Positions 1 through 36,087 of a stretch of 64,000 bases of DNA are shown one piece after another; within the stretch, counting starts at the first letter, position 1; each line of letters opens with the position of its first letter. The notes beneath the pieces are model-generated. The model searched no databases and was not told the DNA's origin. It saw only the letters and a program-made list of their open reading frames with translations. Position numbers and translations under genes: made by a program. This DNA comes from Porticoccaceae bacterium (lineage in GTDB: Bacteria > Pseudomonadota > Gammaproteobacteria > Pseudomonadales > Porticoccaceae): positions 2,516 through 66,515 of the forward strand of contig JALNZZ010000001.1 in NCBI GenBank assembly GCA_023229065.1. The letters run 5' to 3'.

Positions 1-4
1 CGCA

Positions 5-730
5 TCAGCACAGCCCTCCGTTGACGGCGATCACCTGGCGGGTGATGTAGGCGGCTTCGGGGGAGAGCAGAAAGCGCACCAGTGCCGCTACCTCCTCGGG
101 CTTGCCAGCACGGCGCGCCGGAATCATGGCGGCTAACTCATCGGGTACGGCGCCGTCGCTCATGTCAGTCGCGATCAGCCCCGGTGCCACGCAGTTGACG
201 GTGATTTCCCGTTTGGCCAGCTCCAGCGCCAGGGATTTGCTGGCCGCGATAACGCCGGCCTTGGCAGCGCTGTAGTTGGTTTGACCGCGATTGCCGATCA
301 GGCCGGATACCGAGGCCAGGGTGACGATGCGGCCGGGTTGGCGTCGTCGTACCATCGGCATGGTCACCGGGTGCAACACATTGTAGAAGGCATCCAGATT
401 GGTATGGATTACCGAATCCCAGTCCTCGCCAGTAAGGGCGGGAAAGGCCCCATCGCGAATGATACCGGCATTGCAAACCACACCGTAGTAAGCGCCGTGG
501 GCTTCAATGTCCGCTTCCAGCACTTCGCGACAGCGGTCGCGGTCGGCTACGTCGAACTGCAACACTCGGGCTGAGCCGCCCCGGCTCTCAATGGCGCTGC
601 GCACGGCCTCGGCATCGCTCACCTGGCTGCGGCAGTGCAGGACCAATGGGTAACCGGCAGCGGCCAGGGTCAGGGCGATGGCGCGACCGATGCCTCGGCT
701 GGAGCCGGTCACCAGTACAGTGCCGCTCAT
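5..730 (-). CDS. 3-oxoacyl-ACP reductase, SDR family (ApeQ/FabG-like ketoreductase)
   Basis: MSGTVLVTGSSRGIGRAIAL Rossmann motif and YSAAKAG catalytic Y-x3-K. I chose the ATG at 730, which forms an ATGA overlap with the upstream gene stop. The ORF-track N-terminal extension to 823 was rejected. Confidence 0.85.
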   Translation of the reverse strand: MSGTVLVTGSSRGIGRAIALTLAAAGYPLVLHCRSQVSDAEAVRSAIESRGGSARVLQFDVADRDRCREVLEADIEAHGAYYGVVCNAGIIRDGAFPALTGEDWDSVIHTNLDAFYNVLHPVTMPMVRRRQPGRIVTLASVSGLIGNRGQTNYSAAKAGVIAASKSLALELAKREITVNCVAPGLIATDMSDGAVPDELAAMIPARRAGKPEEVAALVRFLLSPEAAYITRQVIAVNGGLC

Positions 731-1188
731 TGCGGGTTCTCCTGCATGAATTCCTCGATATTCTCCGGCATGTAGACGTTGAGGTTGGCGTTGGCGGCAA
801 TATTCGGGCCGCAGATCGAACACTCGAAAACTTGCAGACCGTTAGTCCCTTCAGTAACTGCCTGCACGGATATTGCCAGCCTTGTGCCCAAGGGGAAATA
901 GGCGCAACCGGGCTCGTAGCGTCTGGTGCTCACCAAAAAGCCGATGCGCACCGGGTTGCCGGCGCGGCGGGCGTTGGCGCCAGCATAGGCGGCGATGGCC
1001 TGACCCATGTACTCGAGGCCAACCCAGCTGGGTACGCCGCGATCTTCAGCGAACAGTGACTCGGGAGTGATAGTGACACTGGCGGTCAGGCCGCTGTCGC
1101 GCACTTCGTCGACCTTGTCCAGCAATACCATGGGGGTGTCATGGGGAAGCAGATCGCGAATGGGCGGTGTTGTGCTGGTGGTGCTCAT
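727..1188 (-). CDS. hotdog-fold 3-hydroxyacyl-ACP dehydratase (ApeP-like)
   Basis: About 153 aa starting MSTTSTTPPIRDLLPHDTPMVLLDKV. Size and position between KS and KR match APE-type clusters. ATGA overlaps at both ends. Confidence 0.7.
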   Translation of the reverse strand: MSTTSTTPPIRDLLPHDTPMVLLDKVDEVRDSGLTASVTITPESLFAEDRGVPSWVGLEYMGQAIAAYAGANARRAGNPVRIGFLVSTRRYEPGCAYFPLGTRLAISVQAVTEGTNGLQVFECSICGPNIAANANLNVYMPENIEEFMQENPQ

Positions 1189-2360
1189 GGTGTTTCTCGC
1201 GTCAGGATCAGCGACAAGTTGTTGCCGCCAAAGGCGAAGGAGTTGCTCATGGCTGTCTGTACCGGGTGCTCCAAGCAACTGTGGCCGAGCCCTGTAAGCA
1301 AGGGCATGGCCGGGTCGGGCTGCCCATCCCATTGATGGGGCGGCAGTCTGCCGTCGTCGCGCTGCAGTAGTAGCCAGCACAGTAGCGCTTCAATGGCCCC
1401 CGCTGCGGCCAGAGTATGCCCGGTGAGAGGCTTGGTGGAGCTGCAGGGAGTCGCGCTACCCAGTACCCGGCTTACGGCCAGCGCTTCCACCTGGTCGTTC
1501 TGGGTTGTAGCTGTGCCGTGGAGGTTGAGATAGTCGATTTGCTCCGGTGCCAGATCGGCTCTGGCCAAGGCCTGGCGAATCGCGGCTTCGGCTCCCCTGC
1601 CCTCTGGATGCGGGGAAGAAATATGGTGGGCATCGGAACTCTCCCCCCATCCTGCCAAGCGCACTGCTCCTGGCTCCCGGGTCATCACGAACAGTGCGGC
1701 ACCTTCGCCGATATTGATGCCTCGGCGGTTGATGCTGAAGGGGTTGCAGGGGGTGTCGGCGGTGACCATCAAGGCCGAAAAACCCGCTACCGTCATGCGG
1801 CACAGGCTGTCGACGCCCCCAGCCACCACCGCATCGCACACGCCGAGTTGCAGCAGTCGCGCAGCCGAAACCAGTGCCTTGCCTCCCGAGGTGCAGGCAG
1901 ACGACACCACGGAGCAGGGACCGCCCAAGTCGAGCCAGCGGGCCAGAAAGCGTCCCGGAGCAGAGAATTCCTGGGTGCTGTAGTGGTAATCCGCAGCCAG
2001 TGCAATATCACCAGCGGCGACACTGAGCGCCGCTTCGCCTTCGGCGATACCGGAGGTGCTGGTGCCGATGACCACGCCGATGCGGTCGCGGCCGTAGCGG
2101 GCTTTGAGCTCCTCCACTACCGGCAGCAAGGGTGTCAAGGCCGCTGCCAAGAGACGGTTGTTGCGGCTGTCCTCGCCAGCGATTGTCGCTGGCGGCAGGG
2201 TTGCGTCGACTTTGCCGAGGGGCATGGCGCGCCCAGGCGAGTAAGAGTCGCTAACAGGGAGGGAAGGTGGTGTCGTGGCGAACAGGTTGCGCTCCACTTC
2301 GTCGGTGTTGGTGCCGAGGGCACAGATGACGCCAGCGTGGTTGAGATACACAGCGGTCAC
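1185..2360 (-). CDS. beta-ketoacyl-ACP synthase (ApeO-like KS)
   Basis: 391 aa with active-site SSACTSGGKAL Cys, HGTATTQND and GHTLAAAGAIE His motifs. GTG start in a GTGA overlap with the upstream stop. Confidence 0.9.
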   Translation of the reverse strand: MTAVYLNHAGVICALGTNTDEVERNLFATTPPSLPVSDSYSPGRAMPLGKVDATLPPATIAGEDSRNNRLLAAALTPLLPVVEELKARYGRDRIGVVIGTSTSGIAEGEAALSVAAGDIALAADYHYSTQEFSAPGRFLARWLDLGGPCSVVSSACTSGGKALVSAARLLQLGVCDAVVAGGVDSLCRMTVAGFSALMVTADTPCNPFSINRRGINIGEGAALFVMTREPGAVRLAGWGESSDAHHISSPHPEGRGAEAAIRQALARADLAPEQIDYLNLHGTATTQNDQVEALAVSRVLGSATPCSSTKPLTGHTLAAAGAIEALLCWLLLQRDDGRLPPHQWDGQPDPAMPLLTGLGHSCLEHPVQTAMSNSFAFGGNNLSLILTRETP

Positions 2361-2908
2361 AGAGCAGTCCTCGACAGGCTGTGGACGGTGAGAAGCATAT
2401 TCTGCCCGATATAGTCGATCTCGCGCCCGTTCTCGGTCGCTTCTGCCGTGAGGTAACGCAGGCGCACCAGCTCCTGCCCCCGCCGGCGCAGTACCCGGTG
2501 GTTGTTTTCTTCGCTGACTGTCCAGTCCGGGCCAGCGAACTCCCAGGCTGGCAGGGGTAGATGATGGAGGTAGAGTGCCAGCAGCAGCTGATGGGACAGC
2601 ACAGCGGACCAGCCAGGGGGTGCCTGCAGGGTGTGTGGGGTGCCGCCAGTATGAGACAGAGCCACCAGACGCCGCCCCAGGCCGTCGAACGCTACCAGTG
2701 TCAGCTGACCTGGAGTGAGTGCCACGGCGGCGTCGAGCGTCAGAGTTTTACCGTCGGCGGCAATCTGGACCCGCTCGCGGCTCTGCCAGCAGCAGTCGAG
2801 CTGTTGCGGCGCGGGCAGGGCCAACTGCGCCAGGCGCTGAGGAGCAGTAGTCGCACAGCCGCTGGCAAAGGCGATCAGTACAAGTAGTGCAAGCCTCTTC
2901 AACGGCAC
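2357..2908 (-). CDS. DUF3261-like lipoprotein (ApeN-like)
   Basis: Signal peptide with lipobox LIAFASGC. 183 aa. Conserved position next to the KS in APE clusters. The family assignment is from memory. Confidence 0.6.
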   Translation of the reverse strand: MPLKRLALLVLIAFASGCATTAPQRLAQLALPAPQQLDCCWQSRERVQIAADGKTLTLDAAVALTPGQLTLVAFDGLGRRLVALSHTGGTPHTLQAPPGWSAVLSHQLLLALYLHHLPLPAWEFAGPDWTVSEENNHRVLRRRGQELVRLRYLTAEATENGREIDYIGQNMLLTVHSLSRTAL

Positions 2909-4128
2909 AGTTCCGCGAGAGTGGCGAGGCGCCGCCGGGAGTCACGCACAAAGGGGTTGGCGGTGTCCCAGGCGTACCCGGCCAGGATGGAAGCGATCAT
3001 TGCCCGCACCTGTGGCTGGTGATTGGCAGCGAAGATCACTTTTTGGAAGCTGCCGTCGTACCAGCCGCTGACATAGGTGCGGAAGGTTTCTACACCCAGG
3101 CGCAAGGGCTCGGCATACTCTTGTTCCCAGTCGATGTGCTCGCCGCGCAGTTGACGAGCCACCAGAGGGGTAGCGAGGCTGGCGGATTTCATCGCGATGG
3201 TGACGCCAGAAGAAAACACCGGGTCGAGAAACTCGCCAGCATTCCCCAGCAGGGCGAAGCCGGGGCCCCACAGCGACTTGACCTTGCAGGCATAACCGCC
3301 GATCTGCCGCACCTGGGTATCAAACACAGCGTTGTTGAGCAGTGCAGATAGGTCCGGGCTCTCGGCGAGAGCGCTCTGCAGGACACTGAGCAACTGATCC
3401 TCGGCACCCTCGTCAGTGTAGTAATCCTGGCGTGCTACCACCCCTACCGAGCAGCGACCATCGCTGAAGGGGATAAGCCAGTACCAGACATCATCGAGGT
3501 CGGGGTGGATCACGATCAAAATCTTGTCTCTGTCGTGCTTGGGATCGCTGATATTGTCGGCAATATGGGTGAACACGGCTCTGCGCACGGGGAAGTCGGA
3601 GGGCAGCTCCAGGTCCAGCAGGCGTGGCAACACGCGCCCAAAGCCAGATGCATCAAGCACGAACCCGGCGCGCAGTTGATGGGGCTCGTTGCGGTCGTCA
3701 CGATAGCTCAGTACCGGCTGCCCGTCTTCGTAATGGAAGGCTTCGAGGCGGTGACCGTAGCGTACATCGGCGCCTGAGGCGGCAGCTTCGTTGGCCAGGA
3801 CATGGTCGAAGCGGGCGCGCTGAACCTGGAAGGTAGTACCCGGCCCACTGCTGAACTTGTCGCGGAAGTCAAAGGCGGTGTAGTTGCCGCTGCGCACAAA
3901 AGCGGCGCCATTCTTGTACTGAAAGCCGGCCTGATCGACAGCCTCCCCCATGCCTGCTTCGTGGATGAACTCCATGCATTGGGGCAGCAGGCTTTCACCG
4001 ATGGAGAAGCGGGGAAAGGTGGCCTGCTCAAGCACCACTACTTTTAGGCCTTGTTGGCGCAGCAGAGCCGCAGCAATAGCACCGGAAGGACCGGCGCCGA
4101 TAATGGCAACATCGGTTGTTTCAGTCAT
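2899..4128 (-). CDS. flavin-dependent halogenase-like FAD monooxygenase
   Basis: N-terminal GAGPSGAIAA dinucleotide fold, FPRFSIGESLLPQ motif, and WYWLIP (WxWxIP signature, nt 3469-3486). 409 aa. ATGA overlap with the MMPL gene stop. Confidence 0.8.
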   Translation of the reverse strand: MTETTDVAIIGAGPSGAIAAALLRQQGLKVVVLEQATFPRFSIGESLLPQCMEFIHEAGMGEAVDQAGFQYKNGAAFVRSGNYTAFDFRDKFSSGPGTTFQVQRARFDHVLANEAAASGADVRYGHRLEAFHYEDGQPVLSYRDDRNEPHQLRAGFVLDASGFGRVLPRLLDLELPSDFPVRRAVFTHIADNISDPKHDRDKILIVIHPDLDDVWYWLIPFSDGRCSVGVVARQDYYTDEGAEDQLLSVLQSALAESPDLSALLNNAVFDTQVRQIGGYACKVKSLWGPGFALLGNAGEFLDPVFSSGVTIAMKSASLATPLVARQLRGEHIDWEQEYAEPLRLGVETFRTYVSGWYDGSFQKVIFAANHQPQVRAMIASILAGYAWDTANPFVRDSRRRLATLAELCR

Positions 4129-6440
4129 GGTTGACGTCCTGTAGGCAGGGCCAGGCCCCAGAGATGGAACAACAATGGGGTGACGAGCCAGCTACACAGC
4201 AGTCCGGCAAACACGACGCTGCCGAAATGATGCAGCACCGGTACCTGGCTCAGGGAGAGCAGGCCGAAGGCCAGGATTGAGGTCGCCATCGCCAGGGTGG
4301 CGGCGACCCAGGTATCGCCATTGAGGCCGAGCTCGAGATAAAACACCGCTGTATCCACCGATAGCCCCAGTACCAGTAGCAGGGCGAGAACATGAAAGAG
4401 GGTCACCCCGCCGCTGGCGGATAATGCCAGACTGGCCGCTAACGAAACAAGCACCGAGACGGCCACCACTACTCCGTGGCGGCCAAATAATAGTGGGCAG
4501 GCAAGCGCGAACAGCGCTATGAATATTGTTAGTAGCGCTGTTACCTCGGTGCGCAGCAGCGCTAAAGTGGTAGATACATCGGTGATCAGATCCACCGCGC
4601 TGACACCGGGTAGATCAGCGGCAGCGCTATACAGGCTGGCGGGAATTTCTGTCCCGTGGCGGACCAGCACCAGGCCCTGCTGGTGGTCGCCCAGATGCAG
4701 CGGCGGGAAAAGGGCGGCTACTGCAGCTGGTACCTGATCTGGAGTCAGAGCATCCTCAGACGCCTCGTTGGTGGGGAAGCCGTTGGTCAGGGGGCGCCAC
4801 TCCTGGCAGTCACTGGCGAGCCGTGCGCAGAGACTGGCCAGGGCACCCTCTGGGCCGTAGAGCACGTTTGCCACCAAGGCGCGATCGCGGCGCTGGCGCT
4901 CCAGCGACGGCACCATTTGCACGGTGGCCATCACGGGTGACGGTGAATGTCCCTGGTTCAGTAGATCCACTAATCGCTCCATGCGGCTCAGTACCTGCTG
5001 GCGATCCTCCCCTGCTACGGTCCAGTAACGCTGGCTGTCGATGCCGCCAAGCAGGCCTTGTATCTGGTGCTCATCGGCCAACAGTGCCGCGCTGGAGGTG
5101 TTGAGCAAGCGAATATCGTCGCGCCCGCCCTGACCCGCGACCCAGAGGGCGAGTGCCGGGACGCCTATCACCAAAGCCACTAACCAGGGCCAGCGCCGCG
5201 CTGCCAGGCGTTGATAGACGGCAGCAAAATAGCGAGGGTAAAAGTGTCGCCAGACAGCAAAGGTTGGCGACGCTGGGGCCTGGTAGTTGAGCGATAGCAC
5301 CGCAGTCGCGGCACAGGCACTCAGGAGCCCCGCGACCATGAATACGGCAAACTGGTGTAGTCCAGGGAAAGGCGACCACAGTTGAATCAGATAGGCGGCG
5401 ATACTGGAGCCGGCGCTTAGCAGCACTCCGCGCCGCACCAGGCGCCAGGCGGTGCGAGAGCTTCCCGTACTCTGGTGCTTGATCAAAAAGTGAAAACAAT
5501 AGTCCACCGCCAGACCCAGCAGGGTTGAGCCGAAGGCCAGGGTTACCAGATGAACGCGGTCGAATACCGCCAGGCTTACTGCCAGAGCTGCCACTGTGGC
5601 GCTGACCAGGATGACAGCGATGGCGACTAGAGCCTGCCGGGAGCGAAACACCGCTATTACCAGCAGCAAAATACCCAGCAGCGAGCCACTGCCAATCAGG
5701 GAAATCTCGAAGCGCGCCAGGCGGGTGGCTTCGGCGGCGTGAAATACCAGCCCTGACCGGAGCAAGCGGGCCTGTGGGTCGTGACTGGCAAATGCTGCCA
5801 CCGTGTCGGCCACTGCACTCTGGGCCGTGGCCGTAAAAGGGCTGGACTCCAGTGTGCCGCGCAGCAATAACCAGCTGTAGCCATTGTTGCGCAGACTGGG
5901 AAACCCGCCGCTCATGCCGAAGTGCCCCGTGTTGCCCAGCAGGGATTGCAACCATTTGCCGCCCAGATTGAAGGGGTCTTCTGCCACGCTGTAGAGGCGC
6001 GGAGCGGGTACCGGGCTGTGGAGCTCCCGCAGTAGCTCGTCAGCCAGAGCTGCGGCATCGCCTTTCTGCAGGGCGCTGCGCATCTCGGGAGACAGCAGCT
6101 GGTGGCGGTAGGGAGCGAAAAAATCACTCAGCTCGGTGAGCGGGTCGCCGTGGGGGAGAGCCATTGAAACGCCGGGTTGTTCAGCCAGCTGGTGCTGGAG
6201 CTCAGTGGCCAGGGCGAGTGCCTTATCCGCTTCGGGGTGGGACACCAGGATGACAAACTGTTTGTCGAAACGGTCAGCGACCAGACGGGAGAAGTTCGGG
6301 CCAGTGGCAGTCTGAGGTATCAGCCCCAGAATGTTACTCTCGAAAGCGCCTCCCCCCGCCACTCGCCAGACACAATACAGCGCCGCCAGCAGTAGCAGTG
6401 CGCACCAGGCCTGTAGAGGCCACCGCCGGGCAGCTGCCAT
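4125..6440 (-). CDS. MMPL/RND-superfamily membrane exporter (ApeM-like)
   Basis: 771 aa with two blocks of multiple hydrophobic helices separated by large soluble loops. Sits beside the LolA-like gene, as in APE clusters. Confidence 0.8.
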   Translation of the reverse strand: MAAARRWPLQAWCALLLLAALYCVWRVAGGGAFESNILGLIPQTATGPNFSRLVADRFDKQFVILVSHPEADKALALATELQHQLAEQPGVSMALPHGDPLTELSDFFAPYRHQLLSPEMRSALQKGDAAALADELLRELHSPVPAPRLYSVAEDPFNLGGKWLQSLLGNTGHFGMSGGFPSLRNNGYSWLLLRGTLESSPFTATAQSAVADTVAAFASHDPQARLLRSGLVFHAAEATRLARFEISLIGSGSLLGILLLVIAVFRSRQALVAIAVILVSATVAALAVSLAVFDRVHLVTLAFGSTLLGLAVDYCFHFLIKHQSTGSSRTAWRLVRRGVLLSAGSSIAAYLIQLWSPFPGLHQFAVFMVAGLLSACAATAVLSLNYQAPASPTFAVWRHFYPRYFAAVYQRLAARRWPWLVALVIGVPALALWVAGQGGRDDIRLLNTSSAALLADEHQIQGLLGGIDSQRYWTVAGEDRQQVLSRMERLVDLLNQGHSPSPVMATVQMVPSLERQRRDRALVANVLYGPEGALASLCARLASDCQEWRPLTNGFPTNEASEDALTPDQVPAAVAALFPPLHLGDHQQGLVLVRHGTEIPASLYSAAADLPGVSAVDLITDVSTTLALLRTEVTALLTIFIALFALACPLLFGRHGVVVAVSVLVSLAASLALSASGGVTLFHVLALLLVLGLSVDTAVFYLELGLNGDTWVAATLAMATSILAFGLLSLSQVPVLHHFGSVVFAGLLCSWLVTPLLFHLWGLALPTGRQP

Positions 6441-7042
6441 TACTGGTCCGCGTGGCGAGTGGTGGTCACGCGCAGCAATAGCTCACTGCGGTCGCCGTTA
6501 GTATCGCGTATTTCCACCCGCTCGATGTGGTCACTTCCTTCCAGTAATATGCCTTCCATCTGTTGTGCCAAAGCTGGCAGGCGTGGGGTCAGGCGGAGAG
6601 TCCAGCTGTCGCCGCGGGAGGCGTGGGCGACATCAAAGTATTCTGCAAGGCGGTCGAGGTCGCCTGAGAAAACACCCAGGAAGATACCAGCCACCAGTTC
6701 CGAGGAGGGTACTGGCCGCAGGGTGCCAGTTGCGTCCCCTGCGACGACGCCGTCGGTGGGAGTAATGCGTACTTCGTTGGCGATAGGGTCGGTGGTACGC
6801 CAGACAATGCCTTCACTGCGCCGATAACGAAAGGTACCGGAGGAGTGAAGGGGCACGGCCAGCACGCTGATATGGCGAATCTGCTCGAACTCGCCGTCCA
6901 GGATGTCGATCTGAGCCAGGCGAGCAGCCAGTGACACCAGTGAGTCGTCAGCTTGCTGGTGGTCCTGCGCCCAGGCCGTGCCTCCCGCCAACAGCAGTGT
7001 CACCACCCACAGGGCGACGACGGTCAGGCACCGGTTCTTCAT
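6440..7042 (-). CDS. LolA-like outer-membrane lipoprotein carrier protein (ApeL-like)
   Basis: Start at MKNRCLTVVALWVVTLLLAGGTAWAQ (signal peptide). About 200 aa. ATGA overlap with the thioesterase stop. The longer ORF-track N-terminus was rejected. Confidence 0.7.
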   Translation of the reverse strand: MKNRCLTVVALWVVTLLLAGGTAWAQDHQQADDSLVSLAARLAQIDILDGEFEQIRHISVLAVPLHSSGTFRYRRSEGIVWRTTDPIANEVRITPTDGVVAGDATGTLRPVPSSELVAGIFLGVFSGDLDRLAEYFDVAHASRGDSWTLRLTPRLPALAQQMEGILLEGSDHIERVEIRDTNGDRSELLLRVTTTRHADQ

Positions 7043-7491
7043 GGCAGTAACCCCAACTTGCGGGTTAGCACCGGGGGTGAGGCAAGCTGCATCTCGCCGC
7101 TGTCCATGGCGACAGCTACCTGGATGGTATGCCCCTTGGTGAGTCGCTTGCCGGTGGCGAGATCGGTGATCAAGTAGTCGATGCGGAGCCGGTTTTCCCA
7201 CTCTGCAAGGGTGGCGGTTACCCGAATTTTTTGCTGAAAGCGGGCTGCCCCCACATAGCGAATACGCATGTCGATCACCGGCCAGAAATACCCTGATTCG
7301 CTCATCTGGGAGTAGTTGTAGTCGATGCGGTCGAGCAAGGCGCAGCGCGCCAGTTCGAAATACTTGCTGTAGTGGCCGTGCCAGGCAACCTGGGCAGAGT
7401 CCACATCGTGGAAGGGAATCTCGATGATGACGTCGGCGCTGGGCAAGGGCGCGTTGTCGGAGGAAGGGAGGCTATCAGGCATCTGTATCAT
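7039..7491 (-). CDS. 4HBT/YbgC-type hotdog acyl thioesterase (ApeK-like)
   Basis: 150 aa. The FHDVDSAQVAWHGHYSKYFE motif is typical of 4-hydroxybenzoyl-CoA thioesterase-fold enzymes. Confidence 0.75.
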   Translation of the reverse strand: MIQMPDSLPSSDNAPLPSADVIIEIPFHDVDSAQVAWHGHYSKYFELARCALLDRIDYNYSQMSESGYFWPVIDMRIRYVGAARFQQKIRVTATLAEWENRLRIDYLITDLATGKRLTKGHTIQVAVAMDSGEMQLASPPVLTRKLGLLP

Positions 7492-8446
7492 CTCTGCTTG
7501 TGAGAGGCGGTGGAGAAAGCTTTCTCGCCGCCGATTGCCAAAAGGGAAAGAAGTTGTACCACTGCCAGGGAGCGCTCAGGCAGTGCTGTTCGAGCTGTGT
7601 TACAAAGGCGTCGGCCAGGGCATTGCGTTGCAAGGTGCGCTCTTTACGGGGAACGGTGCCGCCCTGCCAGAGGGCCTTGAAGTGGATATGGTAGCGTCCA
7701 TTGTGCTTGAGGCTATGGATGGTCAAGACCGGCGCTTCCAGAGCTATGGCGAGGGCAAAAGGACCGAGAGGGAAAGGTGCCGGTTCACCGAGAAAGTCGC
7801 GTTCAAGGCTACGACCGTTGCCGATGGCTACCCGGTCGGCGGCGATGGCGATGAATTCACCTGCCCCGATTTTATCGCTCAGGTGCATGGCGGTTCCGAT
7901 GTCGAGATCCGTCACTTGCAGCAGCTCCACTTGCGAGTGACGATTGTGATGTGCCAGTACTTCGTTGAACTTGGCGGCGTTGAGCGTGTGCTGGAGCACT
8001 GTGAGGCGGAGTCTGGGGCGGCTTTCCGACAAGGCCTGGCAGATCTCGAAGTTGCCGAGATGGGAGATCAGGATTACGGCGCCTTGCTTGCGGTCCAGTA
8101 GATTATCGATAAGCTCGCCGCCATGCAGGGTCACCTGATAGCGGGTGATGTCGCCCATCCACACTGCGAGCTTGTCCAGCAGCGCATTGGCAAACTGCCA
8201 CAGATGGTAGATAAAGTGCCAGGGGCGCGGGGCCGGGAAGGTCGGGTCGAAGCGGTGCAAGCGGCGGCGATAGTCGGCAGATGCCAGTCGAGCCTGGCGA
8301 TGAAACAGGGCATAACACAGCACAACTGGGGCAAGGCACAGACGAAAGAGCCACACGCCGCCCAGGCGATACATTGCCACCAGTAGACGTATACCGCGCA
8401 GGGTGGCGGTTTCCGGGCGCTCGGCCCAGTGCGCCGGATCGTTCAA
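7475..8446 (-). CDS. LpxL/HtrB-like (lipid A biosynthesis-type) acyltransferase
   Basis: N-terminal HWAERPETATLRGIRLLV...LCLAPVVLCYALF, then HLGNFE (HX4E-like acyltransferase motif). Proposed TTG start at 8446 in a TTGA overlap with the GT2 stop. The start is uncertain, and the alternative is the ATG of MYRLGG. Confidence 0.65.
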   Translation of the reverse strand: MNDPAHWAERPETATLRGIRLLVAMYRLGGVWLFRLCLAPVVLCYALFHRQARLASADYRRRLHRFDPTFPAPRPWHFIYHLWQFANALLDKLAVWMGDITRYQVTLHGGELIDNLLDRKQGAVILISHLGNFEICQALSESRPRLRLTVLQHTLNAAKFNEVLAHHNRHSQVELLQVTDLDIGTAMHLSDKIGAGEFIAIAADRVAIGNGRSLERDFLGEPAPFPLGPFALAIALEAPVLTIHSLKHNGRYHIHFKALWQGGTVPRKERTLQRNALADAFVTQLEQHCLSAPWQWYNFFPFWQSAARKLSPPPLTSRDDTDA

Positions 8447-9204
8447 CGGGACTGCCCTCCCCGCTGCTGGCGTGTCAGCAGGGCCGGGATGCGCGGCAGC
8501 ATGGCGAAAAATAACCGGGCGTGCATGCGTGAAATAAGAGCGTTGTCGCGCCACAAGCGGAAATGGGATACGCCATTTTCCGGGTAGATCACGCGGGTTT
8601 GGAGTTGCTGCAAAGGGAGCCCGGCCCAGTACCAGCGCACAATGAATTCCACGTCGAAATCCATGCGGTCGCCCACCGGAGCCTGCTCCAGCAAGGTACA
8701 GGACCCGGCCAGGGGGTAGACACGAAAGCCGCACATGCCATCGCGGATTCGCGGCGACAGTGTATTGATCCAGACCCAGATGTGAGTGAGATAGCGGGCG
8801 TAGTAGCGGTGGCGTGGGACACAAGCATCGTAGGCTGGGTAGCCAGCTACCAGGGCATCGGGATGGCGCCGGGCGAGGTCTAGAAAGCGCCCCACATCGC
8901 CGGTGTCGTGCTGACCATCGGCATCGATCTGAAGAGCGTGACTGAAGCCCAGTTGGCGGGCGGTGCGCAGGCCATCCTTTACAGCCGCGCCCTTGCCGCC
9001 ATTGGCAGCACGCCGCACCAGGTGCACTTGGCTCCGAGTGCTGGCGATGGTATCAATGACTTCACGGCAGGGGGAACTGCTGCCGTCATCCACCAGTACC
9101 ACGGGTACGCCGGTGGCGAGCAGCTCGTCTACCGTGCGTGCCAACACCCTTTCATGGTTGTAGACAGGAATCACAGCGCAGGCGTGCAGGGTGTCAGATA
9201 CCAT
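8443..9204 (-). CDS. family 2 glycosyltransferase (ApeJ-like)
   Basis: Starts MVSDTLHACAVIPVYNHERV, with VLVDDGSSSP and QIDADGQHD (DxD) motifs. The long N-terminal ORF extension to 9540 was rejected because it lies inside the upstream gene. Confidence 0.8.
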   Translation of the reverse strand: MVSDTLHACAVIPVYNHERVLARTVDELLATGVPVVLVDDGSSSPCREVIDTIASTRSQVHLVRRAANGGKGAAVKDGLRTARQLGFSHALQIDADGQHDTGDVGRFLDLARRHPDALVAGYPAYDACVPRHRYYARYLTHIWVWINTLSPRIRDGMCGFRVYPLAGSCTLLEQAPVGDRMDFDVEFIVRWYWAGLPLQQLQTRVIYPENGVSHFRLWRDNALISRMHARLFFAMLPRIPALLTRQQRGGQSR

Positions 9205-10894
9205 GGCTTTTCTCGCAACTGAACAGCACTCGCCCGCTGGCGTGGCGACCGCGGGCAGAGCTGTAGCTGAAGTGTAGGCGGGTGCGTTCCGGCTGCCATT
9301 GCAGCTCCAGCGACACCAGGGCACCGGGGTGAATGATGTGCTGGAACTTGATCGCTTCGAGCCCAGTGAAGGTGTCGAGCCCTGTGAAGTGCTGGCGGGC
9401 GTAGTGGATCGCCCAGTGGGTCTGTACCACACCTGGCAGTACGGGGTTGCCTGGAAAATGGCCGTTGAAGTAGAACAGATTGTCGGGAATGTGTAGATGC
9501 AGCCGGCAGTGGGTGCCAGCGACCAGCTCTTCGCTCTCAAGCAGTATGGGAAAGCGGCTCTGGCGTTCGCTTATGAACAGCTCGGTGAGCGTGTCGACAG
9601 TGGTCTTGCCCTGACTGTTGAGCGGCATCCGCGCTACATAGCGCCAGTAACGCGGCAGAGCCACGGGGTCCACCGGGCCGGCAATGTGGTCGCGCAGCAG
9701 ACCGTTGACTGCTTGCCGGCCGCGATCAATCAGTGCTGCATTGCCTTCCGCAGTGAGCCTGATCACCGCACCGAGGCGGCCCTTGCGCTCTGCCAGTGGC
9801 ACTAGCCGGGCCTCCTGCACCCAGGGGTGGCTGGTCAGAGAGCTTTCCAGGGTGGATAGAGCAATCCGCTTGCCTCCGATCTTGGTGATGCGATCGATGC
9901 GCCCGGCGAGAGTGAAAGTCGTGGATGACAGGATCTGACCTGCATCCGCCGTTGTCAGGGGGCGGTCATGGGCAAGGGCTGGCGAGTGAATGCGCAACTG
10001 GTCCGATTGCTCATGAGAGGTCGCGGGGGGGTGATCTACGGTAATGCCGGGCAGGCACTGCCAGATCGCGGAAGGGTGCCGTCGCCAGGCGACAGCACCT
10101 GTTTCTGTACTGCCGTAAATTTCCGTGATCGATGTGCCGAACAGCTCGAGGCAGCGGATTGCATCGTTCTCCGCCAGAGGGGCTCCGGCGCTGAATACCC
10201 GTGAGATGCGGTTGTGAACGCTGTCCGGGTCCAGATTGTCCGGCAGATGTCGTAGGTGCACCGGACTGCATACCAGGGCTAGATGTTGTTGTCGGGCAAG
10301 ACGCTCGAGGGCCAGGGGGTGATGGACGGTGCGGCTGTGGAACAGCGCTCCCCGAGTGAGGGGCCACAGCAGTCCGAACGGCAGGCCGAACATGTGATGG
10401 TGCGACACCATATTGACCACTAGCGTATTCTGCTCTTGGTTGCCCCACAGGTGGTCGATCAGGGCGAGCTCACTGTCCAGTTGCGCGAGGCTTTTGGGCA
10501 CTGCTTGGGGACTGCCGCTGGAGCCCGAAGTAAACAGGACCAGCGCGGTGTCGCCGGGCAGCTCGGCGGGCAGGGCCGCAGGGTCGAAAACGGTAGCACA
10601 GCTGCCGTCCGAGAGCGGAGCCATCAGTGCGGAGGGGAGATCGCGAAAGCCACTGGCAGAAACCACCGCGACTCTAGCGCTGCGCCACGCGGCCCACAGC
10701 CAGGAGAGAAACTCACAGGGCTCGGGCTGGTGGATGGCGACGGGGCCAGGTGGCAATGTCGCGAGGTGATTTTCACGGCACTGTACTCGATGGCGGAACC
10801 AACCCCAGTCGAGGACGCCTTCAGGGCCTGTCGCTAGAGGTTCGGCGTCAGCCGGGTGCTGGCCAGTGATCAAGGTCGCTAGTGGGCTAGCCAT
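9194..10894 (-). CDS. adenylate-forming (AMP-ligase) enzyme fused to a C-terminal FabZ-like hotdog dehydratase (ApeH+ApeI-like)
   Basis: The N-terminal ~440 aa has LVLFTSGSSGSPQAV (AMP-binding P-loop-like) and EIYGSTETG motifs. The C-terminal ~120 aa carries GHFPGNPVLPGVV (FabZ active-site motif, nt 9431-9460). Confidence 0.8.
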   Translation of the reverse strand: MASPLATLITGQHPADAEPLATGPEGVLDWGWFRHRVQCRENHLATLPPGPVAIHQPEPCEFLSWLWAAWRSARVAVVSASGFRDLPSALMAPLSDGSCATVFDPAALPAELPGDTALVLFTSGSSGSPQAVPKSLAQLDSELALIDHLWGNQEQNTLVVNMVSHHHMFGLPFGLLWPLTRGALFHSRTVHHPLALERLARQQHLALVCSPVHLRHLPDNLDPDSVHNRISRVFSAGAPLAENDAIRCLELFGTSITEIYGSTETGAVAWRRHPSAIWQCLPGITVDHPPATSHEQSDQLRIHSPALAHDRPLTTADAGQILSSTTFTLAGRIDRITKIGGKRIALSTLESSLTSHPWVQEARLVPLAERKGRLGAVIRLTAEGNAALIDRGRQAVNGLLRDHIAGPVDPVALPRYWRYVARMPLNSQGKTTVDTLTELFISERQSRFPILLESEELVAGTHCRLHLHIPDNLFYFNGHFPGNPVLPGVVQTHWAIHYARQHFTGLDTFTGLEAIKFQHIIHPGALVSLELQWQPERTRLHFSYSSARGRHASGRVLFSCEKSHGI

Positions 10895-11450
10895 GAGCGC
10901 CTCGTATCCGGCGGCGTACCAGCCACTCCCCTGCCAGCAGGGCACCCATTAACAGATAAGCAATGAAGCCGTTATAGAGTAGCCACCAGCGCTGGTCACC
11001 AAACACTGTTGCCAGCGCAATGGTGCCGTTGAGAGCGAAAAAGAGCGTCCATACCTGGGTTACCCGGCGGGTGTAACGAACGGCTTCTGACGGCAGATCT
11101 GGCTCTCGCAGTCGCGCTACAAGTTCGATGGCAGAGGGCGGGCGAGCCAGGCTGACGGCAAAGACTGCCAGCAGCACACAGTTGACCAGCACCGGATACA
11201 ACAGCAGACCGAAAGATGAGCCAGTGACCAAGGTAATAGCGGTGGTGCCCAGAGCGGCGGCGACCAGCGCCACCAGGCTTGCCTGGAGCTGCCCAGTGGA
11301 ACGAGCGCTAACCAGACGCCAGCCGACAACAAGTACCAGCAGTAGCGCCAGCCAGCGGGGGTCCAGGTAGCGCAAGCCAATGAACACGGCGGCGGGATAG
11401 AGCAGAAGCAGAGCGCTGCTGGCAAGCCGCCCCCTGGCGCTGTCAGCCAT
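10887..11450 (-). CDS. small polytopic membrane protein (ApeG/COG4648-like)
   Basis: About 187 aa and almost entirely hydrophobic helices. Lies between the ACPs and the adenylase as in APE clusters. Start MADSARGRL was chosen. Confidence 0.6.
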   Translation of the reverse strand: MADSARGRLASSALLLLYPAAVFIGLRYLDPRWLALLLVLVVGWRLVSARSTGQLQASLVALVAAALGTTAITLVTGSSFGLLLYPVLVNCVLLAVFAVSLARPPSAIELVARLREPDLPSEAVRYTRRVTQVWTLFFALNGTIALATVFGDQRWWLLYNGFIAYLLMGALLAGEWLVRRRIRGAHG

Positions 11451-11694
11451 CGCGGAGCAGGCCCTCCACCGCAGTGATGATATCGCCCACGGTGCGGACA
11501 TTCTTGAAATCCTCGGGCGCGATCTTGCGGCCAGTATAGTTTTTGAGTTCCACGATCAGGTCGACGGCGTCAATGCTATCGATATCCAGGTCGTCATAGA
11601 GATGGGCGTCTTCGCTGAGACTGGCCGGGTCCAGCTCGAACATCTCGCTCATCAGGCCGGTGACATGCTGGTAGATTTGCTGGCGTGACTTCAT
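11443..11694 (-). CDS. acyl carrier protein
   Basis: 83 aa, acidic, with the phosphopantetheine-attachment motif DLDIDSIDAVDL. Confidence 0.9.
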   Translation of the reverse strand: MKSRQQIYQHVTGLMSEMFELDPASLSEDAHLYDDLDIDSIDAVDLIVELKNYTGRKIAPEDFKNVRTVGDIITAVEGLLRDG

Positions 11695-11966
11695 GTCGGT
11701 GTTCCTCCTCGCTGACTGGCTACCAGCCGGGCGAGATCGACGATGCTGGCGAAATACTGTTTGACATCGTCGGTCTCGGGGTCGAGCTTGATGCCGTAGC
11801 GCTTTTGTAGGGCCACGCCGATTTCCAGCGCGTCGATGGAGTCCAGGCCCAGCCCATCATTGAACAGGGGTGCCTCGTCGTCGATGTCATCGGGGCCGAT
11901 GTCTTCCAAATCGAGAGTTTCGATGATCATGACCTTGAGTTCATTGTGTAGTGTGTCAGTGCCCAT
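11691..11966 (-). CDS. acyl carrier protein
   Basis: 91 aa, acidic, with the GLGLDSIDALEI attachment motif. ATGA overlap with the second ACP. Confidence 0.9.
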   Translation of the reverse strand: MGTDTLHNELKVMIIETLDLEDIGPDDIDDEAPLFNDGLGLDSIDALEIGVALQKRYGIKLDPETDDVKQYFASIVDLARLVASQRGGTPT

Positions 11967-12732
11967 GGCAGTGGCGTTCCTCGGTAAAAAAATGCTCCAG
12001 ACTGTCAGTAAGGTGCCGTGCGCCGAGGGGCGCGGGACAGTCTAGAAAGGGGGTTATAGCGATGTCGTCCCTGACCGAGAAAGTCATTGCAAACGGTCGC
12101 TCGGGAATATGATACCACCGGTGCTGCTTGCTCAAGGTGGGGGGTGAGCAATGGATGATTACCGGTGTTACCGGCACTTGGCAGCGCACGGCAATGTTGG
12201 CTGCACCGCGCTGCAAGAGAATGGGCGCCCCCTCGCGAGTGCGGGTGCCCTCGGGAAAGATCACCAGCACATCGCCAGCGGCAAGGGAGCTGGCTGCCTG
12301 CTCCAGTAGAGTGCTGCCGCGGTCGTTGGTGATATACCCGGCCAGGGCGATGAAACCGCGCATGGCCGGGTTGTTCAGCAAGCGACTCTTGACGATACAG
12401 TTGGCGTTGGGCAAGAGCGCTACCAGCAGTACCACATCGATCAGGGTGGGATGGTTGGCCAGCACCAATAACCCTTGCCGGTTGAGCTTTTCTATACCGT
12501 TCACCTGCCAGGTCATCACGCCAAGTCCCTGCATCAGGTGGGCAAAGCCACGAAACAGCCAATGTACCAAGCGCCGTGAGCGCCGCTGACGGTCAGCGGC
12601 GGTACCCGGCAGCAGGTAGAGGACGGGTGTTGCCACGAGAGGGACCAGCACCCCGCCCACACCGAACACCACAAAGCAGAAGGCGGTGGCAACCAGGCGC
12701 CAGAGATAGTTCAGGTGCTTCCACGCAGTCAT
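11956..12732 (-). CDS. PlsC-type lysophospholipid/1-acyl-glycerol-3-phosphate acyltransferase (ApeD-like)
   Basis: Starts MTAWKHLNYLWRL with an N-terminal TM segment. Motifs LANHPTLIDV (HX4D) and IFPEGTRT. The ORF-track extension to 12987 was rejected because it lies inside the CLF gene. Confidence 0.8.
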   Translation of the reverse strand: MTAWKHLNYLWRLVATAFCFVVFGVGGVLVPLVATPVLYLLPGTAADRQRRSRRLVHWLFRGFAHLMQGLGVMTWQVNGIEKLNRQGLLVLANHPTLIDVVLLVALLPNANCIVKSRLLNNPAMRGFIALAGYITNDRGSTLLEQAASSLAAGDVLVIFPEGTRTREGAPILLQRGAANIAVRCQVPVTPVIIHCSPPTLSKQHRWYHIPERPFAMTFSVRDDIAITPFLDCPAPLGARHLTDSLEHFFTEERHCHGH

Positions 12733-12733
12733 G

Positions 12734-13438
12734 TCAGTGTTTGGCGATGGTCCAGTGCCCACCGTTATGGGAGGCGCTGAAGGTTTGTTGTGAAGAAGCG
12801 AGAAACTCGATAAAGCGCAGCGCCTGGGGCAGGCTCTCCTTGGGCGCTGTGCAGTCTGCGGCCACTTGGTCGCCGGCGCGGTCGAGGGTGACGGCCAGTC
12901 CAGTGCCGGGACCAACCACGAAACTGGCGGCAAACGGTGCCGCCGGCCAGGTGCAATCGCGCTGGTAGAGCGCCGGCACGGGAGCATCGGCGATCACGCA
13001 GATGACTTGTTCATTGGTTTCTCTCACCAGCCCCGCGGCTTCCAGCAGCACAGGCACCAGACATTCGTCCTGGGCCGCGATACTGGTGATGTTGGCGGTA
13101 AGGCCCCTGTGTATCGATACGATACCGGTGATGGCGTTGTGTACTGACAAGCTGAAGTGCATGGGAGATACCGGTTCACCGCGCGCTAGCTCGCTAAGTA
13201 CACTGAGTGTCCGCTCCAGGTCGCCGTGACGCGAACCGTAGACCACAGGGATGTCAGCGGTATGACGCAGCAGCTCTGCTGCAGTTGCGCGCCCGAGCGT
13301 GTTGAGACGCCGGCGCAACATGGCTGGGATGGCGGACACATCGGGAGTGTCGCTGACGTGCAGCACGGAGCCAGGCACCAGTGGGTGCGCGGGGGTGGTC
13401 CAGCCGGACCAGTTGGAAATAGCAAGCTCAACAGCCAT
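12734..13438 (-). CDS. KS-related protein lacking the active-site Cys (chain-length-factor-like, ApeC-like)
   Basis: 234 aa starting MAVELAISNWSGWTT. First gene of the operon. No ACxSG motif is visible. The assignment comes from position and from remembered beta-ketoacyl synthase N-terminal-like proteins of APE clusters. Confidence 0.55.
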   Translation of the reverse strand: MAVELAISNWSGWTTPAHPLVPGSVLHVSDTPDVSAIPAMLRRRLNTLGRATAAELLRHTADIPVVYGSRHGDLERTLSVLSELARGEPVSPMHFSLSVHNAITGIVSIHRGLTANITSIAAQDECLVPVLLEAAGLVRETNEQVICVIADAPVPALYQRDCTWPAAPFAASFVVGPGTGLAVTLDRAGDQVAADCTAPKESLPQALRFIEFLASSQQTFSASHNGGHWTIAKH

Positions 13439-13823
13439 CCCGGGGCTGGCACCTTCATTGGAAGTGAGGAGGTTGATGCTCAGATTGCAGAGACGGCAAG
13501 GGCCGTTTGCTATCTCTCATCTGACAAGCGGAGTGAAGTCTAGCAGATGCCTGAAGAGGGGCAAGGTTCGCTTTATCGCCCCAGAGTTTGGTTGCAGCAG
13601 ATCTGGCCGAGCGAGTATCGCCGCTCCATCCCGCAATGGACGCCACAGAGTTGTCTGAGACATTGCTTCAATGTCGGATGGAGGACCAGAACGCAGTACT
13701 TGGACAGAGCGCAAAGGATGGATAAACTGCCGGCAACTGCGGCTGTGTCAAGGACCGTCACAGGCCCCTTGGTCATTAAGGGGAGCACAGCTGCTGTTAC
13801 CTAACCGATAGAAGGAGTTTACC

Positions 13824-14261
13824 GTGCATCTCAAGCTTGCCCTCGTTTTTGCCCTCGTGGCCTTGTTCAGCCTGCCCGGTCATGCCCGGGATACCAAGCA
13901 CCTGCTCTCCATTGATGAGGCGATGAGCTCTGCCGACTTTCAGGAAAGGCTCGACCCGAATGTCCGTCTCTATTTTGGTGATACCCCTCACCCACAGCCT
14001 CTCCAGCGGCGCGGTGAATACGTTTCCAACAAGAAGACCAATGCTGTCGGCAAGTCCGATCGCCGCGCCTGTGAGTGGGTGCTGCTGTCCGCCTTGTTGA
14101 GCCTGCAGGAGAGAGCTGTGGCCGAAGGTGGAAACGCAGTGGTCAATATCCGCAGCTACTACAAGAAAAACACCTTCTCCAGCACCACTGAGTACGAATG
14201 TCATACCGGCGCGGTGATTGCCGGGGTGGCCCTCAAGGGGGAGGTGGTCAAGCTGCCCTAG
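13824..14261 (+). CDS. conserved secreted protein of unknown function
   Basis: GTG start 7 nt after a GAAGGAG Shine-Dalgarno. Signal peptide MHLKLALVFALVALFSLPGHA. From memory, homologues are often mislabelled excinuclease ATPase subunit. Confidence 0.6.
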   Translation: MHLKLALVFALVALFSLPGHARDTKHLLSIDEAMSSADFQERLDPNVRLYFGDTPHPQPLQRRGEYVSNKKTNAVGKSDRRACEWVLLSALLSLQERAVAEGGNAVVNIRSYYKKNTFSSTTEYECHTGAVIAGVALKGEVVKLP

Positions 14262-14311
14262 CACTGATCGATTCAGCAGGGCGTGCCTTATCCTTCCGCT
14301 GATACTGTCCT

Positions 14312-14974
14312 GTGACCAGCAGCGCGGCAGCGGTGCTGCTGGCGATCGACGAGGTGCCTGATCGAGTCATCGCCCGTTGGCTTGCCGCTTTGCCTGACTC
14401 GGCACAGACGCGTGCCCATGCGTTTCGCTCAGCCCGTCGTTACCGCCAGTTCGTGGCTGCGCGCCACCTGCTGACCACTCTGCTGCGGGAGCAGCTTGGA
14501 AGCGCAGTAGAAATTGCCGCCAAGCCCGATGGCAGACCTGGCATCGCAGGTGCCGAAGCATACTGCTCCCTTGCCCACAGTGGCAGTGCGGTGATGGCGG
14601 GGTTCAGCCTGCTGGGTCCTGTCGGGGTCGATATCGAGCAACATCGTCCACGAAATTTCGAGCGCCTGGTGATGACCTACTTCCACCCGAGAGAGCAGAA
14701 GGAGTTCGCCGCTCTGGATCGCGACCAGCGAGAGCCCTGGTTCTACCGGCTGTGGACGCGCAAAGAAGCCTGTGCCAAGGCCTTGGGCCAGGGGCTGACA
14801 CTGAAAGCCCTGGCGTCACTGGTGCCAGGCGAGGGTAATCACTTTGCGCTCAGCAGCGGCGTTCGCCAAAACTATAGTTTTGCAGTGGCCCATGGTGGTG
14901 TTGCAGAGGTAGTGCCCAGGGTGGTTTCCCATGAGGGCGCCGCCAGGCTTGCTGGTGAGGAGCCATTTACCTAG
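14312..14974 (+). CDS. Sfp/EntD-type 4-phosphopantetheinyl transferase
   Basis: GVDIEQHR and WTRKEACAKALG motifs. 220 aa. GTG start. Confidence 0.8.
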   Translation: MTSSAAAVLLAIDEVPDRVIARWLAALPDSAQTRAHAFRSARRYRQFVAARHLLTTLLREQLGSAVEIAAKPDGRPGIAGAEAYCSLAHSGSAVMAGFSLLGPVGVDIEQHRPRNFERLVMTYFHPREQKEFAALDRDQREPWFYRLWTRKEACAKALGQGLTLKALASLVPGEGNHFALSSGVRQNYSFAVAHGGVAEVVPRVVSHEGAARLAGEEPFT

Positions 14975-32604: not shown

Positions 32605-32619
32605 CGGAGGATTAAAGTC

Positions 32620-34173: not shown

Positions 34174-34208
34174 CTACACTGTAACTGTAGCAACGAGAGG
34201 AGGTAAGC

Positions 34209-34763
34209 ATGGCTACTGCTGTTCATAAGACACTGATAAAACTGAGTGTTGGCGCGGTTGTTATGTTTGCCTTCGCCATGTTTGCAATGCCACCTCTGTA
34301 TACCATGTTTTGTGAAGTAACGGGTATCGGGATCAACACTGGCGAGCCGTATGTCGCGACAGAGGCAGGTATTGATGAAAGTCGCACCGTGCGAGTGCAA
34401 TTCGTCACCACCAATAATGCTGAAATGCCCTGGCAGTTTGCGCCTAGCATCCACGAAGTGAGAGTTCATCCCGGTGAGCCGACGCCGGTAACTTTTTGGG
34501 CTCACAACACCACCGACAATGATATGGTGGGTCAAGCCATTCCCAATGTGGCGCCCTTTAATGCGGCTCAGTACTTTCACAAGACGGAATGTTTTTGCTT
34601 TAACAACCAGCCGCTGGCGGCCGGTGAAAAGGCAGACTTGCCTTTGGTCTTCATTGTGGACCCGGATCTGCCTCCGGCAGTGAAAACCATCACTCTGTCG
34701 TACACCATGTTTGATATCACGGATCGCCAGAGCGGCGGCCCTGTAGCAGCCACAACAAACTGA
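34209..34763 (+). CDS. ctaG: cytochrome c oxidase assembly protein CtaG/Cox11
   Basis: FCEVTGIG and copper-binding TECFCF motifs. 184 aa. Confidence 0.9.
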   Translation: MATAVHKTLIKLSVGAVVMFAFAMFAMPPLYTMFCEVTGIGINTGEPYVATEAGIDESRTVRVQFVTTNNAEMPWQFAPSIHEVRVHPGEPTPVTFWAHNTTDNDMVGQAIPNVAPFNAAQYFHKTECFCFNNQPLAAGEKADLPLVFIVDPDLPPAVKTITLSYTMFDITDRQSGGPVAATTN

Positions 34764-34809
34764 AGAGCAATAGCGCGCCCGGGTAGGGGTGTTAATTCGG
34801 AGAGCAATA

Positions 34810-35694: not shown

Positions 35695-35746
35695 TCGCTG
35701 CTGACGGGGGCCGCGTTTAGGTAGAGTTCGACAGTGGGGCTTCACT

Positions 35747-35775: not shown

Positions 35776-35801
35776 GCTGTTATCCTCTTTAGCGAGCAGA
35801 T

Positions 35802-36050: not shown

Positions 36051-36087
36051 AGTAGTGTCCGCGTGGAATGGGGTGATTTAAACACAG

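Follow-up and report, generated by a model that had tools for sequence, protein, structure and literature searches.

A flavin-dependent halogenase-like gene in an aryl polyene operon of a Porticoccaceae bacterium and its relatives in a 3NIX-like clade

A stretch of 64,000 nucleotides from a Porticoccaceae bacterium (assembly GCA_023229065.1, contig JALNZZ010000001.1, positions 2,516–66,515; hereafter the window, whose numbering we use throughout; ~60% G+C) begins with one long minus-strand operon at positions 1–13438. Within it, between genes for an exporter and a DUF3261 lipoprotein, an open reading frame (ORF) at 2899–4128 (minus strand, ATG start) encodes a 409-residue protein resembling flavin-dependent halogenases (FDHs), as judged from the ORF and its translation, a match to PF04820, PDB matches, an AlphaFold model and Foldseek comparison. 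A plus-strand reading of 2899–4128 was rejected, its translation being full of stops. The original prediction for this DNA had proposed a halogenase embedded in a polyene operon and hence a halogenated product. Having computed directly the motifs, the fold, the clade and the clade-wide linkage to aryl polyene clusters, we consider it probable, though well short of certain, that the gene encodes a two-component FDH tailoring the aryl polyene made by the ape-type type II polyketide operon around it.

All four published FDH motifs (GxGxxG, the lysine, WxWxIP and Fx.Px.Sx.G) are found in the protein, and the three stretches cited in the original prediction (GAGPSGAIAA, FPRFSIGESLLP and WYWLIP) are all present on the minus strand of the 409-residue ORF; the lysine and Fx.Px.Sx.G come in addition to these. 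The GxGxxG FAD-binding motif GAGPSG spans residues 11–16 (4081–4098) within the longer stretch GAGPSGAIAA (residues 11–20, 4069–4098), and its G11, G13, P14 and G16 are invariant in a 56-sequence alignment of the clade to which the protein belongs. FPRFSIGESLLP covers residues 38–49 (3982–4017) and includes FPRFSIGES (residues 38–46, 3991–4017), with Glu45 inside the GES triplet; F38, P39, R40, G44, E45 and S46 are likewise invariant in the clade, and sequence alignments to PDB entries pair the motif with FPRxxIGES of CndH, Bmp2, Mpy16 and ChlB4. E45 is clade-invariant and occurs also in these four aligned halogenases. The active-site glutamate of FDHs is E346 of PrnA in tryptophan halogenases, and the GES glutamate has been proposed for CmlS; outside the tryptophan halogenases an active-site role of the glutamate is putative.

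Lys72 (codon 3913–3915, in FQYKNGAAF) is the predicted catalytic residue that forms the chloramine or guides hypohalous acid (HOX). It is invariant in the clade and stands opposite a lysine in all five alignments, to 3NIX, Mpy16, ChlB4, Bmp2 and CndH; by residue counting the CndH lysine is K76, which we take to be catalytic. A literature search on CndH Lys76 returned nothing relevant. The lysine at the equivalent position of RadH, K74, is essential (PMC10377541). The WxWxIP motif, WYWLIP, occupies residues 215–220 at 3469–3486, as originally predicted. The fourth motif, defined together with other published halogenase motifs in PMC8407142, is represented by FLDPVFSSG (residues 300–308, 3205–3231; F300, P303, S306 and G308), of which F300, D302, P303, S306, S307 and G308 show no variation within the clade. 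It is preceded by GNAGEF (residues 295–300, 3229–3246), where Asn296 takes the place of the GD-motif Asp. In FDHs, the Fx.Px.Sx.G motif lines the tunnel and the halide site.

The motifs are also conserved among diverse relatives. Searching 1.84 billion representative proteins gave 13,108 relatives, 507 of them at <1e-30. For conservation we aligned 111 sequences, made up of full-length representatives of 50%-identity clusters together with six closer homologues and five references from the PDB. All but one of the 111 have K72 (110 sequences); in WxWxIP, W217 is kept in all 111, W215 in 109 and I219/P220 in 109–110; G44, E45 and S46 are kept in 108–110, and the FxDPxFSxG residues in 107–110. 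Because the motifs are near-invariant across the 111 aligned sequences, they are not chance matches. The Pfam Trp_halogenase model PF04820 is passed with 90.8 bits against a gathering cut-off of 21 (1.2e-25). A sequence search of the PDB returned 3NIX first, as a full-length match (355 bits, E = 2.8e-105), followed by Mpy16, ChlB4, Bmp2, CndH, FasV, PltA, CmlS and RadH (1e-38 to 3e-30) and then by CtcP and PltM; variant-B halogenases score 108–136 bits and monooxygenases at most 45 bits (5e-11 or weaker).

An AlphaFold model of the protein, built on a 56-sequence alignment, is of high confidence (pLDDT 96.3, pTM 0.94). Compared with the PDB by Foldseek, it matches 3NIX at a TM-score of 0.95, and ranks 7–40 consist of 34 chains, all of them halogenases (TM 0.71–0.89), among them PltA (0.89), Mpy16 (0.88), ChlB4 (0.87), RadH (0.86), FasV (0.84), Bmp2 (0.83–0.84), CmlS (0.78) and CndH (0.75), together with CtcP and PltM. 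Folds of other kinds begin at rank 41 with TM-scores near 0.70 (geranylgeranyl reductase and p-hydroxybenzoate hydroxylases). In both rankings the protein therefore groups with halogenases and not with hydroxylases, as had been proposed; it bears the motif and fold hallmarks of an FDH. The two computational checks named with the original prediction, for the catalytic lysine and for a placement away from hydroxylases, thus both came out in favour of a halogenase.

The original prediction had further likened the protein to the clade of CndH and PltA. The resemblance stands, membership does not: in a neighbour-joining tree the protein joins 3NIX in a large clade apart from that of Mpy16, ChlB4, Bmp2 and CndH. 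On this sequence evidence it belongs to a sister group of the carrier-protein-dependent halogenases, outside the CndH/PltA/Bmp2 group. Features specific to the 3NIX-like clade are the Asn of the GD motif and, in the C-terminal helices, the invariant W356–Y357, G384 and N391. 3NIX itself, deposited as a 'flavoprotein/dehydrogenase' of Cytophaga hutchinsonii and so from another phylum (Bacteroidota), is 43% identical to the window protein in structural alignment (root mean square deviation 1.5–1.9 Å) and shares with it K72, WxWxIP, GNA-x-EFLDPxFSSG and the C-terminal WYDG and LAGYxWD. The variant-B FDHs PltA, Mpy16, Bmp2, ChlB4 and CndH have the same fold (TM 0.75–0.89), the same motifs and a similar size, and like the window protein are without a lid of the tryptophan-halogenase type. 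They differ in lying in a separate clade, at 24–28% identity in structural alignments, and the clade of the window protein has Asn rather than Asp in the GD motif.

Turning to the genomic setting, the claim that the gene is coupled by ATGA overlaps between the MMPL exporter and the DUF3261 gene proved half right. Upstream, the junction is indeed ATGA, the TGA stop of the transporter overlapping the halogenase ATG at 4125–4128. Downstream it is not: the halogenase stop overlaps the DUF3261 start as TTGA (TTG 2902, the start called on contig L010, which is 99.94% identical to window 1–14128 and was used for gene calls past the window edge), or, with an alternative GTG start at 2908, by 10 nucleotides. 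Since both junctions overlap, translation of the gene is coupled to that of its operon neighbours. The identity of the neighbours was borne out. The DUF3261 or ApeN-like lipoprotein (2357–2902, 181 residues from TTG 2902; L010 gene call) matches PF11659 at 1.9e-15, and the ApeM-like RND/MMPL transporter (4125–6440, 771 residues) gives weak HpnN/RND matches, while its counterparts in homologous loci carry the MMPL label; a description of ApeM is given in PMC8253772.

All other operon genes also lie on the minus strand. Downstream of the lipoprotein gene are an ApeO-like ketosynthase (1185–2360; PF00109/PF02801, NF006618 at 1.1e-147), an ApeP-like dehydratase (727–1188; PF22817) and an ApeQ or FabG-like ketoreductase (5–730; FabG models), the last two called on L010. 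Beyond window position 1, at L010:14124–16038, the operon ends with an ApeR-like ketosynthase (408 residues) and a class I S-adenosylmethionine (SAM) methyltransferase (231 residues), after which L010 carries a convergent PLD-like gene and then a YdjM gene. Upstream of the transporter gene, gene calls and Pfam matches identify a LolA-like carrier (ApeL; 6440–7042, PF19574), a 4HBT thioesterase (ApeK; 7039–7482, PF13279), a lipid A-type acyltransferase (7475–8446, PF03279) and a family 2 glycosyltransferase (8443–9204, PF00535) corresponding to the two halves of ApeJ, and a 566-residue fusion of the aryl-acid AMP-ligase ApeH with the dehydratase ApeI (9194–10894; PF00501 and PF22818). An ApeG-like membrane protein (10887–11450) is assigned by operon position and synteny, having no Pfam match. 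Two acyl carrier protein (ACP) genes follow at 11443–11694 and 11691–11966 (PP-binding calls on L010, translations), then an ApeD-like lysophospholipid acyltransferase (11956–12732; PF01553, gene call) and, as the first gene of the operon, an ApeC-like chain-length-factor ketosynthase (12734–13438; PF13723, 3.6e-52). The biosynthetic set is complete (chain-length factor, ApeO and ApeR ketosynthases, ApeI and ApeP dehydratases, ApeQ reductase, aryl-acid ligase and ACPs), as is the set for anchoring and export (acyltransferases, glycosyltransferase, LolA-like protein, RND/MMPL transporter and DUF3261 protein), and the surrounding operon is a complete ape-type aryl polyene operon.

Two genes diverge from the operon on the plus strand. 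The first (13824–14261) encodes a small secreted protein of 145 residues without a Pfam match, whose homologues occur in related clusters: it is 54% identical to the product of the end gene of a Pseudoalteromonas cluster, where the GenBank label 'excinuclease ABC subunit A' is probably a mis-annotation, and 29% identical to that of a hypothetical gene in a Ralstonia cluster. It would appear to be an unnamed accessory conserved among such clusters. The second (14312–14974, PF01648) encodes a 4′-phosphopantetheinyl transferase that probably activates the two ACPs of the cluster; such a gene also flanks the clusters on contigs L003, L004 and L009.

Taken with L010, the operon corresponds gene for gene and in the same order to apeC to apeR of the E. 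coli CFT073 apeA–R cluster (PMC8253772). As had been claimed for enterobacterial ape clusters, the CFT073 cluster table contains no halogenase; its methyltransferase, ApeB, lies near the start of the cluster (PMC8253772). The Porticoccaceae cluster differs in having the halogenase gene inserted between apeM and apeN, the methyltransferase as its last gene, ApeH and ApeI fused, and ApeJ split into two overlapping genes. An exchange of the methyltransferase for the halogenase was considered and dropped, the SAM methyltransferase being present as the last operon gene on L010; the predicted pigment would therefore carry a methyl group in addition to the halogen. Among the larger ORFs of the 64-kb window, Pfam scans revealed no gene for a starter unit (tyrosine ammonia-lyase or other ammonia-lyase, XanB2, or a UbiC or other chorismate-utilising enzyme). 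When window 1–14974 was compared with L013, L014, L004, L007 and L009, an aromatic ammonia-lyase was absent from the window cluster and present in the Pseudoalteromonas, Ralstonia, P0132, P0287 and P0150 clusters. By analogy with the proposal for E. coli, the starter is probably hydroxybenzoate from primary metabolism.

A counterpart with known pigment chemistry comes from Xanthomonas. The original prediction had pointed to brominated xanthomonadins, and published work agrees: Xanthomonas xanthomonadin clusters carry a halogenase and the pigments are brominated, whereas Lysobacter without the halogenase gene makes a non-brominated pigment (PMC3691225). Xanthomonadins carry zero to two bromines and a methyl group (PMC3691225, PMC3838355), a combination paralleled by the halogenase and methyltransferase of the window operon. 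XCC4001, and also XanB1 ('putative reductase/halogenase'), resemble the window gene, going by cluster description, in being predicted flavin halogenases in aryl polyene clusters. The Xanthomonas cluster is differently organised, and its starter, 3- or 4-hydroxybenzoate, is made by XanB2 (PMC3949708), for which the window cluster has no gene. No Xanthomonas protein appeared among the top 120 matches of either homology search (with the window protein and with a Nevskia homologue) or in the named clusters, and a scan of genome contigs for relatives gave three close relatives only. 'Probable halogenase' genes have been noted in other aryl polyene clusters (PMC8776678).

Clade members elsewhere show the same association. 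The order transporter–halogenase–DUF3261 is kept in a Porticoccaceae metagenome-assembled genome (MAG; 82% identity to the window halogenase) and in Haliea sp. E1-2-M8 (74%), as well as in Cupriavidus sp. 2SB (60%) and Pseudoalteromonas shioyasakiensis (59%), where the GenBank record already names the gene between transporter and DUF3261 'tryptophan 7-halogenase'. More distant members (41–55% identity) sit elsewhere within aryl polyene or flexirubin-type clusters, in Ralstonia solanacearum OE1-1 (55%, beside a SAM methyltransferase), in Nevskia (53%, an aryl polyene/flexirubin-type cluster), and on two metagenome contigs and one MAG contig. They include P0132 (44–46%, in a cluster with an ammonia-lyase), P0287 (42–44%, in an aryl polyene/flexirubin-type cluster) and P0150 (41–42%, in a flexirubin-like cluster with an ammonia-lyase); P0287 is also the nearest sampled relative of 3NIX, at 50% identity. 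In total, ten of 11 independent loci with clade members are aryl polyene or flexirubin-type clusters. The one locus outside such a cluster is that of P0153 (44%, L005:8661–11677), flanked by an HMG-CoA-synthase/chalcone-synthase-like gene and a 4HBT thioesterase, near ABC/MacB-type export genes, and this branch may have a different substrate. P0153 lends some colour to the notion that the window enzyme, too, halogenates a substrate unrelated to the pigment and entered the operon by accident. We regard this as very improbable, given the overlapping junctions on both sides with the translational coupling they bring, a position conserved from Gamma- to Betaproteobacteria, and the ten pigment clusters among the 11 loci.

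With its sequence and fold hallmarks of a halogenase found in an aryl polyene operon, the gene makes a chlorinated or brominated pigment a fair prediction, as first suggested from the sequence. We infer the catalytic activity, the halide used, the halogenated position and the timing on the ACP as follows. By analogy with other FDHs, FADH2 from an unlinked flavin reductase would react with O2 to give a flavin hydroperoxide, which chloride or bromide would attack to yield hypohalous acid. The WxWxIP strand would hold the organic substrate off the flavin, so that no hydroxylation ensues. HOX would reach Lys72, from which an electrophilic halogen would pass to the electron-rich hydroxyphenyl head of the polyene, whether still growing or finished, ortho to its hydroxyl, or, less likely, to the adjacent polyene carbon. 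The substrate would most likely still be attached through a thioester link to either ACP of the cluster, the two ACPs being its likely tethers. The SAM methyltransferase from the operon end would add a methyl group; the acyltransferases and the glycosyltransferase would then join the halogenated, methylated aryl polyene to its lipid anchor, and the ApeL-, ApeM- and ApeN-like proteins would carry the anchored pigment to the outer membrane.

The proposed timing leans on the variant-B FDHs, whose genes adjoin those of carrier proteins and whose substrates are small aromatic acyl thioesters; tethered 6-methylsalicylate is the presumed substrate of ChlB4, and a tethered tyrosine analogue that of CndH (PMC8407142). 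In these enzymes the acyl group is pyrrolyl or tyrosyl, whereas the thioester predicted for the window protein would carry an aryl or aryl-polyenoyl group from a type II polyketide synthase (PKS). The two ACP genes and the phosphopantetheinyl transferase gene of the cluster lend such a carrier-bound substrate indirect support. In a natural fusion, P0125 (816 residues), a clade halogenase (residues 3–407; 51% identity to the window protein) precedes a ketosynthase domain (476–758); it suggests that the halogenase works with type II PKS machinery, although it could be a gene-calling artefact.

Several findings weigh against this role, the first of them against its timing. RadH acts on free substrate though structurally closest to variant B (PMC10377541), so that likeness to variant B is no proof of carrier-protein dependence. 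A genuine halogenase of the variant-A type might thus act late, on the released aryl polyene acid or on the lipid-anchored pigment: both RadH and CmlS are classed as variant A despite being structurally near variant B (PMC10377541, PMC8407142), the gene is placed among export genes (transporter and DUF3261) and not beside the ACPs, and methylation after assembly has been proposed in a related pathway (PMC8253772). The gene's position says little, because it varies between clusters. The nearest characterised relatives by sequence and fold (PltA, Mpy16, Bmp2, ChlB4 and CndH) depend on an ACP or a peptidyl carrier protein, the 409-residue protein is about the length of Bmp2 and has no extra C-terminal lid domain, and the ketosynthase fusion of P0125 points to action during chain assembly. 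Late action on a free substrate therefore seems to us unlikely.

The remaining points bear on whether the enzyme halogenates at all. No biochemically characterised member of the 3NIX-like clade was found in the PDB, the tree or the literature. Its sole structure, 3NIX, is a structural-genomics entry, which gives structure but no chemistry because its function was never assigned; a literature search for 3NIX together with halogenase found nothing. NCBI labels most clade members with the generic name 'NAD(P)/FAD-dependent oxidoreductase'. The best NCBIfam matches fall far under their cut-offs (CmlS model, 136.8 bits against 900), the geranylgeranyl-reductase model TIGR02032 comes near the CmlS score with 123.5 bits (1.3e-35), and the QhpG monooxygenase model follows at 4.6e-34, also below its cut-off. 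With no NCBIfam cut-off reached, the protein fits no named equivalog. Asn occupies the GD-motif position in at least 90% of clade members; the aligned halogenases Mpy16, ChlB4, Bmp2 and CndH have the Asp (GDA), which flavin monooxygenases also carry. No flavin reductase gene was found in the 64-kb window by Pfam scans of the larger ORFs. Finally, the pigment cluster of Azoarcus BH72 contains a gene labelled 'halogenase', yet its pigment is non-halogenated (PMC3949708).

Such findings could be accommodated by a flavoenzyme with halogenase-like motifs that does not halogenate, such as one that hydroxylates the aryl ring or reduces the polyene or the lipid anchor, leaving a pigment without halogen. 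We judge this less likely still than late action. The protein has IGES, as do the aligned halogenases, and geranylgeranyl reductases have a cysteine motif in its place. All NCBIfam reductase and hydroxylase matches fall below curated cut-offs, and by fold such enzymes rank below the 34 halogenase chains. Within the clade, the lysine specific to halogenases and the WxWxIP motif vary little or not at all, and the latter is thought to block monooxygenation (PMC8407142). The Azoarcus counter-example is given less weight because its ArcA is probably a XanB1-type protein, of another family than the window halogenase: its identity to Xanthomonas XCC4001 is only 26%, across 61% of the ArcA length, and its gene adjoins a XanB2 homologue. 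A reductase or hydroxylase as the leading assignment (geranylgeranyl reductase, QhpG, LodB/GoxB or MenJ, all sub-threshold in NCBIfam) was rejected because the lysine, WxWxIP and Fx.Px.Sx.G are invariant and because those folds rank below all halogenases. We thus retain the FDH assignment.

Aryl polyene-type pigments protect against oxidative and light damage, and halogenated versions, the xanthomonadins and the chlorinated flexirubins, have been known for decades. In the literature searched, the halogenating enzyme of such pigments appears only as a gene annotation. The transporter–halogenase–DUF3261 arrangement is common and already annotated in other bacteria, and the window gene is accordingly an ordinary, well-supported annotation in one more operon of a known type and not a surprise. 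The wider value lies in the clade-level link of 3NIX-like halogenases with aryl polyene clusters. Members of the clade come from Bacteroidota, from Alpha-, Beta- and Gammaproteobacteria and from further groups. It includes Ralstonia solanacearum, Cupriavidus metallidurans, Eikenella corrodens and Pseudoalteromonas, with named members from Shewanella, Colwellia, Thalassospira, Eikenella, Solimonas, Myxococcales and Verrucomicrobiae; some records of clade members already carry the name 'tryptophan 7-halogenase'. More tentatively than for the window gene itself, we raise the possibility that the 3NIX-like clade is a dedicated aryl polyene halogenase family, for which we found no characterised member. 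If so, halogenated outer-membrane aryl polyene lipids would be far commoner than the few known xanthomonadins and chloro-flexirubins imply, and the classic halogenated pigments would gain a candidate enzyme family that already has a crystal structure. An orphan structure (3NIX) and members in bacteria that are readily cultured and genetically tractable make the question of halogenation directly testable.

A search of plasmids and chromids for homologues returned 166 records, including C. metallidurans CH34, 117 Ralstonia megaplasmids and one Acinetobacter junii plasmid. On the last of these (CP077416.1, 199,575 bp; the record is unannotated), a homologue 56% identical to the window protein lies at 71189–72436, which hints that aryl polyene halogenase clusters can be plasmid-borne.

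Outside the cluster, Pfam scans assign the window's larger ORFs to housekeeping functions. A complete aa3-type cytochrome c oxidase locus at 31450–40128 (plus strand) encodes subunits II and I, CtaG, subunit III, SURF1, CtaA, CtaB and SCO1, and a zinc-uptake locus at 40174–43242 comprises divergent znuCB, Zur-like regulator and znuA genes; both are ordinary housekeeping. At 48924–54551 (minus strand), a 668-residue protein of the PF10136 'site-specific recombinase' family (735 bits) adjoins a phosphoketolase–acetate kinase pair, with no evident link to the pigment cluster.

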